A stretch of DNA of 64,000 nt from Oscillospiraceae bacterium (GCA_017409405.1 JAFQSU010000007.1:20767-84766), one strand, 5' to 3'. Shown: positions 20,063 through 20,286, counted from the first letter of the stretch. Made by a program: numbers and translations. Notes: a model not told the origin generated them from the sequence alone.

Positions 20063-20286
20063 AGACTGTCGAAAAAGGCGCGAGAGCATAAGCGGAGGAA
20101 AAATTTAAAGAGAGTTTTTTCGTAAAACAAACATTGACCAAAAGCAAATGCACGCATATTTAAAATCCCTTGAAGTGTCGAACTTCAAGGGATTTTCCGC
20201 TTATTTTGCCCGAATGTCACCTCTCGGAGTATACACATACACCTTCGGGTTCCATTCGGACAATCTCACACCTTTTTGGACAGTCT
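20063..20286 (+). mobile_element. MITE-like non-autonomous element, copy 1 (224 bp)
   Basis: TIRs AGACTGTCGAAAAAGG / CCTTTTTGGACAGTCT. Central perfect hairpin at 20167-20191. Near-identical copy at 40919-41140. No conserved ORF. Confidence 0.75.

Follow-up and report, generated by a model that had tools for sequence, protein, structure and literature searches.

In ISfinder, the entry for IS1182 gives target duplications of 0–60 bp. ISBma2, which has the inverted repeats CAGATTGCTGACAAACCC, makes duplications of 18–26 bp with a GC-rich centre between A and T, and the published examples are palindromes that run from A to T (PMC2877748). The ISBma2-like element ISCbo5 sits in gene-end hairpins of Clostridium botulinum group III (PMC3098183). 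IS1272 and TnSha1 choose stem-loops and terminators by structure (PMC4923244, PMC5678879), and the published model includes an alternative outcome in which the entire stem-loop is duplicated (PMC5678879). Where copies lack matching duplications, the literature invokes recombination between copies. Here we describe a short repeat from an Oscillospiraceae genome that is, with high probability, a non-autonomous MITE mobilised in trans by an IS1182-family DDE transposase of the ISBma2/ISCbo5 group, one that targets and duplicates terminator hairpins. Landing on hairpins and duplicating them whole is already documented for the IS1182 family, and the element is a new example. It calls for no new mechanism, because ISBma2, ISCbo5 and IS1272 had already established the principle.

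We looked for these features directly in five IS1182 elements on plasmids. The ISCbo5 copy on plasmid p3BKT015925 encodes the Pfam domains DUF772, DDE_Tnp_1_6 and DDE_Tnp_1, starts with CAGGCTGTTGATAAA followed by an inverted copy of the same sequence, and ends in ...GAACAATCTG; the other four come from C. estertheticum, C. sporogenes, B. subtilis and B. pseudomallei. All have CAG...CTG ends, with terminal inverted repeats (TIRs) such as CAGACTGTTGACAAA and CAGGCTGTCGAGAAA. Exact duplications of a whole hairpin flank ISCbo5 (30 bp) and three of the other four (19–27 bp); the imperfect repeat that flanks the C. estertheticum copy was not counted as a duplication. The TIR of the MITE matches those of the ISCbo5, C. 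estertheticum and B. subtilis elements at 12–13 of 15 positions. Like the MITE, the ISCbo5, C. sporogenes and B. subtilis elements carry a TIR hairpin at one end.

The stretch of DNA that we analysed (the window, 64 kb) contains two copies of the element. Aligned together with their flanks, 20063–20286 (224 nt) and 40919–41140 (222 nt) are homologous from end to end, and the homology stops sharply at both sides. The original prediction had recognised this relationship by eye, with roughly a dozen substitutions and an identical core of 90–95 bp; an exact count gives nine mismatches, two one-base gap columns and an identical run of 91 nt. The 16-mer AGACTGTCGAAAAAGG occurs at four window sites with at most one mismatch (20063+, 20271−, 40919+ and 41125−), which are the two ends of each copy; 0.62 sites were expected, and none of 100 shuffled sequences reached four. 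Thus the predicted terminal inverted repeats, which match at 15 of 16–17 positions, are present at both ends of both copies. A TIR-like 15-mer at 51707 lies inside a coding gene and was set aside as a chance match. Both copies begin 42–45 nt 3' of a stop codon, as had been noted: copy A follows the degV TAA (20017–20019) and copy B the DUF4340 TAG (40870–40872). Pfam assigns the flanking genes to DegV, to a HAD hydrolase (convergent, after copy A) and to DUF4340. The element folds far more stably than shuffled sequences, with z-scores of −9.2 and −10.9 on the two strands. As predicted, it does not encode protein: copies are 224–277 bp long, indels between them disrupt every reading frame, and no ORF is conserved. 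Nor did tblastn find an IS1182-family transposase anywhere in the 64-kb window, again in line with the prediction.

Copy A is a complete unit of 256 bp (20062–20317, + strand), polymorphic among strains, and its full-length homologues in other MAGs share its outer end. It opens with the left TIR CAGACTGTCGAAAAAGG (20062–20078, +), whose first 16 nt are identical to the left inverted repeat (IRL) of two IS1182-family elements described below, L047 and L048. An A-run precedes and a T-run follows a perfect, terminator-like central hairpin (20162–20196); next comes a second internal stem-loop, CCCGAATG...CATTCGG (20207–20263), which lies within the most conserved part of the element. The stem noted there earlier, CCCGAAGG/CCTTCGGG, is perfect in copy B but pairs at only 7 of 8 positions in copy A. 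The original prediction of a 224-bp MITE-like element took the inner terminal-repeat copy CCTTTTTGGACAGTCTC (20271–20287, −) as the right end. The element is indeed mobile, but its full unit in copy A continues through an additional 30-bp terminal hairpin, CAGCGTGTCAATAGG-TTTATCGACACGCAG (20288–20317), that consists of two further inverted TIR copies. The outer arm of this hairpin (20303–20317) is the true right end. At this outer terminus copy A reads CAG where other copies have CTG.

The target-site duplication of copy A is the entire degV terminator hairpin, and the earlier statement that there was no clear duplication was wrong. The left copy (20031–20061, +), CAACACCCGATGC-CTTAT-GCATCGGGTGTTG, is the degV/HAD terminator hairpin and abuts the first base of the element; the right copy (20318–20348, +) is the same 31-bp hairpin with its 5-nt loop inverted (ATAAG versus CTTAT). 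Contigs that encode a protein identical to the window's DegV preserve both alleles of the site. In L002 (NCBI MAG GCA_017436735.1), L003, L007, L008 and L010 the site is empty: degV is followed by a single hairpin and then by the HAD gene. It is filled in L001, L005, L006 and L009. Filled and empty alleles differ by 287 bp, the sum of the 256-bp element and the 31-bp duplicated hairpin. The single hairpin at the empty site of strains with an identical DegV shows that copy A inserted recently. Several contigs of the degV locus break off inside the element, as expected for a multi-copy repeat.

The inverted loop of the right hairpin copy of copy A sets it apart from the left copy and from all empty sites. 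A simple staggered-cut insertion model does not predict this inversion. Most simply, it reflects a later flip inside one hairpin, by recombination or template switching between the arms. There is also a small chance that the flipped loop is the footprint of a folded single-stranded hairpin intermediate in structure-guided DDE integration.

Several other differences appear among the degV contigs. In L009 (1205–3910) copy A continues on its right side into an unrelated locus with a different flanking hairpin and with genes for a MazE antitoxin and Gate-domain proteins; either two copies have recombined here, or the assembly is chimeric across the repeat. The window at about 16988–18264 and upstream carries a methyltransferase/PDDEXK (restriction-modification-like) block adjoining an HTH gene. 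At that place strains with an identical DegV have genes for RNase H, a class V aminotransferase and NifU, marking a strain-variable island. A different repeat of about 180 bp occurs in L005 (about 1957–2139); its terminus, TTTTTTCGACAGTCTG, is shared with the MITE, and its site is empty in L008. It sits in the NifU terminator between copies of a duplicated hairpin, AGCCTTCCC...GGAAGGCT, and is a second non-autonomous family with the same ends as the MITE.

Copy B (40918–41141, +) is 224 bp long, ends on the right at the inner TIR and has no terminal hairpin. Its outer bases, ACAG...CTGT, pair across the whole copy in an inverted-repeat scan. On its left it abuts the hairpin ACAGAGACTATCC-TTTC-GGACAGTCTCT (40890–40917, +), probably the left copy of a duplicated DUF4340 terminator; in the left flank of copy B the hairpin reads AGAGACTATCC-TTTC-GGACAGTCTCT. 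The right end runs GGACAGTCTC-TGTTTTTC, where TGTTTTTC (41142–41149, +) would be what is left of the presumed original DUF4340 terminator, its stem end and T-tract. Copy B is old and fixed: all nine recovered strain contigs (L049–L057) are filled, with an identical right end at the inner TIR, and a search with four protein anchors recovered no empty site. The 224-bp form appears to be a truncated variant. The original terminator, ACAGAGACTATCC-TTTC-GGACAGTCTCTGT-TTTTC, would first have been duplicated whole, as usual. GGACAGTCTC would then have stood both in the inner TIR and in the right hairpin copy, and a later deletion between these identical stretches probably removed the terminal hairpin and half of the right duplication. 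As every strain contig has the same truncated end, we can only infer this deletion. Between copy B and the dihydroorotase gene, L049, L051, L052 and L057 carry a 672-bp insertion that is absent from the window (site at about 41228–41238). It has an 11-bp direct repeat, CACAAAGTTAA, at both sides and encodes a 62-aa cysteine-rich ORF.

The arrangement of inverted repeats of 16–23 bp around some 180 bp with a promoter-like TTGACC-17-TATTTA, in a gut bacterium, resembles an inverton, that is, a promoter-bearing segment flipped by a site-specific recombinase. The position of copy A between hairpins with mutually inverted loops could be read in the same way. However, each locus shows a single orientation, at copy A in L001, L005, L006 and L009 and at copy B in L049–L057, which argues that the element is not an inverton. 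The polymorphism is one of presence versus absence rather than of inversion, and copy A lies between convergent genes, where there is nothing to switch on. The promoter itself, put forward in the original prediction as an internal start site, has no conserved counterpart in other subfamilies, and the sequence scan did not call it. An inverton is therefore very unlikely.

A scan of GTDB species genomes for the TIR found 23 loci. Most of these (19) are in one goat-rectum Oscillospiraceae MAG (RGIG3057), the majority less than 300 bp from a contig end; a 'Eubacteriales' MAG contributes three and an Acutalibacteraceae MAG one. This location at contig ends is expected because the repeat breaks assemblies. 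One metagenome scan gave two matches, both at contig ends. BLASTN of the element against PLSDB plasmids found no match, and scans of IMG/VR, one with the MITE TIR and one with the conserved right arm, found none. In all, the element occupies at least 26 distinct insertion sites across four uncultured Clostridia MAG lineages. Full-length copies elsewhere measure 239–277 bp and run through the extra terminal hairpin, which is thus part of the transposing unit; this unit measures about 253–277 bp. Because the arms of this hairpin, CAGCGTGTCGAAA, repeat the TIR once more, the actual termini are CAG...CTG. A further TIR copy, CAGCGTGTCGAAAAAC, forms the outer right end.

The sites themselves share a shape. 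In 25 of the 26 distinct left flanks a locus-specific palindrome with 8–16 paired bases lies 0–1 nt before the element, compared with a rate of 2.6% at random control positions. Nearly all of these palindromes start with A and finish with T. At about 18 of 23 sites a co-directional ORF ends 24–100 nt upstream of the element. Direct repeats of 23–33 bp, each a whole hairpin, surround six complete copies, copy A with its flipped loop included; the repeats are 24, 33, 23, 26 and about 30 bp long, and 31 bp in the window. That the duplicated target is the whole terminator hairpin at a gene end explains why copies lie just 3' of stop codons. L031 and L009 have unlike hairpins on their two sides and no duplication, and L033 has no hairpin at all. 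Presence/absence polymorphism, dispersed copies, TIRs, short noncoding length and target duplication, the testable hallmarks of a MITE, are all observed here.

These data bear on a more static history, in which two paralogous intergenic segments were copied once and have been immobile since. The window holds only two copies, and copy B occupies the same site in every recovered strain contig, both of which would suit such a history. Against it, the junction at which copy A is present or absent is sharply defined, the other sites, at least 26 in four lineages, each have their own duplicated hairpin, and assemblies break repeatedly inside the element. The original prediction had named a pair of copies syntenic in all relatives as the sign of an old duplication; copy A is instead absent from strains with an identical DegV. 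Empty sites and dispersed copies refute a static duplication, to which we assign next to no probability.

An IS with matching ends occurs in a MAG that also holds the MITE. A tblastn search of the recovered contigs with IS1182 transposases matched L011, from the RGIG3057 MAG that holds about 19 copies of the MITE. This contig has a MITE end at one extremity; the other consists of a hairpin, CAGACTGTTGAAAAAG and the first 88 residues of a transposase. The IS end matches the MITE terminus at 15 of 16 positions, and the 88-residue N-terminus is 47–49% identical to the ISCbo5 and ISBma2 transposases. A search of protein collections with these 88 residues returned only fragments of 70–154 aa, since assemblies break at the IS. 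From one fragment we reached a complete IS of 1558 bp, L047, whose IRL, CAGACTGTCGAAAAAG, matches the MITE terminus at 16 of 16 positions and whose right inverted repeat (IRR, reverse complement) is CAGACTGTCGAAGAAC. Its transposase has the Pfam domains DUF772 and DDE_Tnp_1_6; a 1-nt deletion at 3240–3300 of the contig splits it into ORFs of 95 and 393 aa. An intact IS with a 496-aa ORF was found on an IMG/VR contig (L048). It also starts with CAGACTGTCGAAAAAG, identical at 16 of 16 positions, and its protein scores 407.7 bits on the NCBIfam model NF033551 'IS1182 family transposase' (cutoff 270) and contains PF05598 (DUF772) and PF13751 (DDE_Tnp_1_6). These autonomous elements with the identical 16-bp terminus bear out the prediction of a mobile, MITE-like element whose cognate transposase is encoded elsewhere, as do the empty degV site and the dispersed copies.

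Both L047 and L048 abut hairpins. In each of them, and in the MITE copy L031, the two flanking hairpins differ rather than forming a duplicated pair; copies may have recombined, or insertion between neighbouring terminators may have an alternative outcome. Another copy of the IS (L059, 3001–3909) is split by the gene for a DEDD transposase of the IS110 family. The MITE resembles the ISs found only in the terminal 16 bp, so it is not a simple internal-deletion derivative of ISs of the L047/L048 type, and its true progenitor, if it has one, was not found among the recovered ISs. We also considered that the TIRs are relics of the transposase C-terminus (FFDSL), and dropped the idea since the ORF ends before the IRR in the ISs examined.

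Other mobile systems also favour hairpins. IS110/IS1111 elements (DEDD), IS200/IS605 elements or RAYTs (HUH) and group IIC intron-like retroelements likewise prefer REP, attC or terminator hairpins (PMC1525189, PMC11187229, PMC7923331), and any of them might in principle have moved the MITE. None of these makes long direct target duplications, however. HUH elements lack terminal inverted repeats, Rfam detects no intron RNA signature, and the element and IS1182-family DDE elements share an identical 16-bp terminus. We thus regard mobilisation by one of these systems as highly improbable.

In an alignment of 11 copies from the four lineages the element falls into three zones: the left 40 nt are conserved, the middle varies, and the right 100 nt hardly change at all. 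The central hairpin was correctly described as a perfect stem, but it is longer than the 10 bp reported: its arms, AAAATCCCTTGAAGT and ACTTCAAGGGATTTT, have 15 nt each and are 100% complementary in copies A and B. In the consensus fold, compensatory changes maintain the central hairpin across subfamilies, at five pairs, and an enclosing stem at two pairs. The central hairpin was scored terminator-like on the + strand with a T-run of only 4–5 nt, and on sequence criteria it may act as a terminator. It is missing from L029, an otherwise complete copy. Rfam, searched over the whole window at the gathering threshold and over the element at E-values up to 10, contains no family for either strand of the element; the best match, BTnc005, reaches 28.7 bits against a threshold of 174.8 and covers the terminator only. 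The sole Rfam family above threshold in the window is the Gut-1 RNA (RF01706; 49192–49268, +; 67.4 bits against a gathering score of 50).

There is a small chance that the right 100 nt and the covarying, bidirectional hairpin form a selected module. It could act as a structured RNA, or as a portable terminator that makes good the loss when insertion clips the host T-tract; hosts would in that case put up with the element or even use it as a 3'-UTR cassette. One may also take the element for a dispersed small-RNA or regulatory-RNA gene, or for a 3'-UTR/terminator module spread by host selection, with the transposon-like ends secondary. The near-invariance of the right end across lineages, the seven compensated pairs, the z-scores below −9 on both strands, the terminator-like score of the central hairpin and the orientation bias relative to the upstream gene (about 18 of 23) are all consistent with this. 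Counter to it, no Rfam family matches, the weak terminator match falls far under threshold, the candidate promoter is not conserved, and L029 is otherwise intact without the central hairpin. Furthermore, template switching can yield compensatory changes in DNA palindromes without selection, and conserved ends are also required of a transposase substrate. We consider an RNA gene or host module improbable as the primary identity of the element; it is, moreover, compatible with mobility and would add function on top.

Returning to a MITE moved by an IS1182-family transposase, the insertions could have come about as follows. The transposase would be supplied from elsewhere by ISs of about 1.56 kb that have the same 16-bp terminus, and would bind the MITE terminal repeats in trans. 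Its target would be a GC-rich palindrome bracketed by A...T, in practice the intrinsic terminator hairpin at the 3' end of a gene, recognised by its palindromic or cruciform shape and not by a specific sequence. Following a staggered cut, the two 3' ends of the element would be transferred to the outer feet of the palindrome, and gap repair would leave a full copy of the hairpin on each side. The resulting duplication of 19–33 bp would have its length set by the hairpin. The proximal hairpin copy would lose most of its T-tract, keeping about three T, and the distal copy would retain the original T-tract. Termination would then be supplied by the internal terminator-like hairpin together with the distal hairpin copy, making terminators safe landing sites. 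Since the internal hairpin and the distal T-tract remain, insertions are probably near-neutral and able to accumulate.

The 26 sites, the filled/empty pair and the candidate transposases constitute a natural data set on a little-studied behaviour, in which a DDE transposase family appears to choose terminator hairpins by DNA shape rather than sequence and duplicates them whole. The element also accounts for one type of break in assemblies, and for spurious small ORFs, in Oscillospiraceae MAGs from the ruminant gut. For annotation, duplicated terminators around small repeats should be read as insertion scars. A compact donor of about 256 bp and a 496-aa transposase are candidates for structure-directed integration.

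Among the known systems, the element fits the ISBma2/ISCbo5 group of the IS1182 family in its insertion signature. Members of this group, from Burkholderia mallei/pseudomallei, Clostridium botulinum group III, C. novyi and Bacillus, share CAG...CTG termini with the MITE, and their TIRs (CAGATTGCTGACAAA, CAGGCTGTTGATAAA and CAGACTGTTGACAAA) are related to its own (CAGACTGTCGAAAAA). Both insert at gene-end palindromes that are GC-rich and bracketed by A...T. Their duplications are long, vary in length and correspond to the palindrome (18–30 bp in the group, 23–33 bp in the MITE), a second inverted copy of the TIR forms a hairpin at one end, and many copies have lost matching duplications (PMC2877748; PMC3098183). 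Unlike these ISs, the MITE is only 224–277 bp long, lacks a transposase gene and has an interior unrelated to the ISs found. It also has three to four TIR copies and a conserved internal terminator-like hairpin. Its hosts are uncultured Oscillospiraceae, Acutalibacteraceae and 'Eubacteriales' known from ruminant and human gut MAGs.

IS1272 and TnSha1 of staphylococci resemble the MITE in their 16-bp terminal repeats and in a structure-based target without sequence consensus, and the variant IS1272L has an extra tandem copy of the terminal repeat (PMC4923244, PMC5678879). IS1272, however, deletes or replaces the target stem-loop and makes no duplication, whereas the MITE leaves the stem-loop intact and duplicated, corresponding to pathway b of the published model and not to pathway a. 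Stem-loop replacement of the IS1272 type was rejected here, given that the hairpin is kept and duplicated in most complete copies; L031 and L009 are ambiguous in this respect.

Classical MITEs such as Correia/NEMIS, RUP, ERIC and MITEAba12 are likewise short, noncoding and intergenic, with TIRs and long-hairpin folds. They can contain promoters or terminators, and ISs with matching ends mobilise them in trans. Their duplications are short and fixed (for example TA or 9 bp) and their sites are defined by sequence, in contrast to the hairpin-length duplications and the sites, apparently defined by structure, of the present element. REP, BIME and REPIN sequences, with the ISs that target them, share with it an association with extragenic palindromes at gene ends and the use of hairpins as landing pads. 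REPINs, though, are moved by HUH enzymes (RAYT) and have neither TIRs nor duplications, whereas the hairpins occupied by the MITE are unique host terminators that belong to no repeat family.
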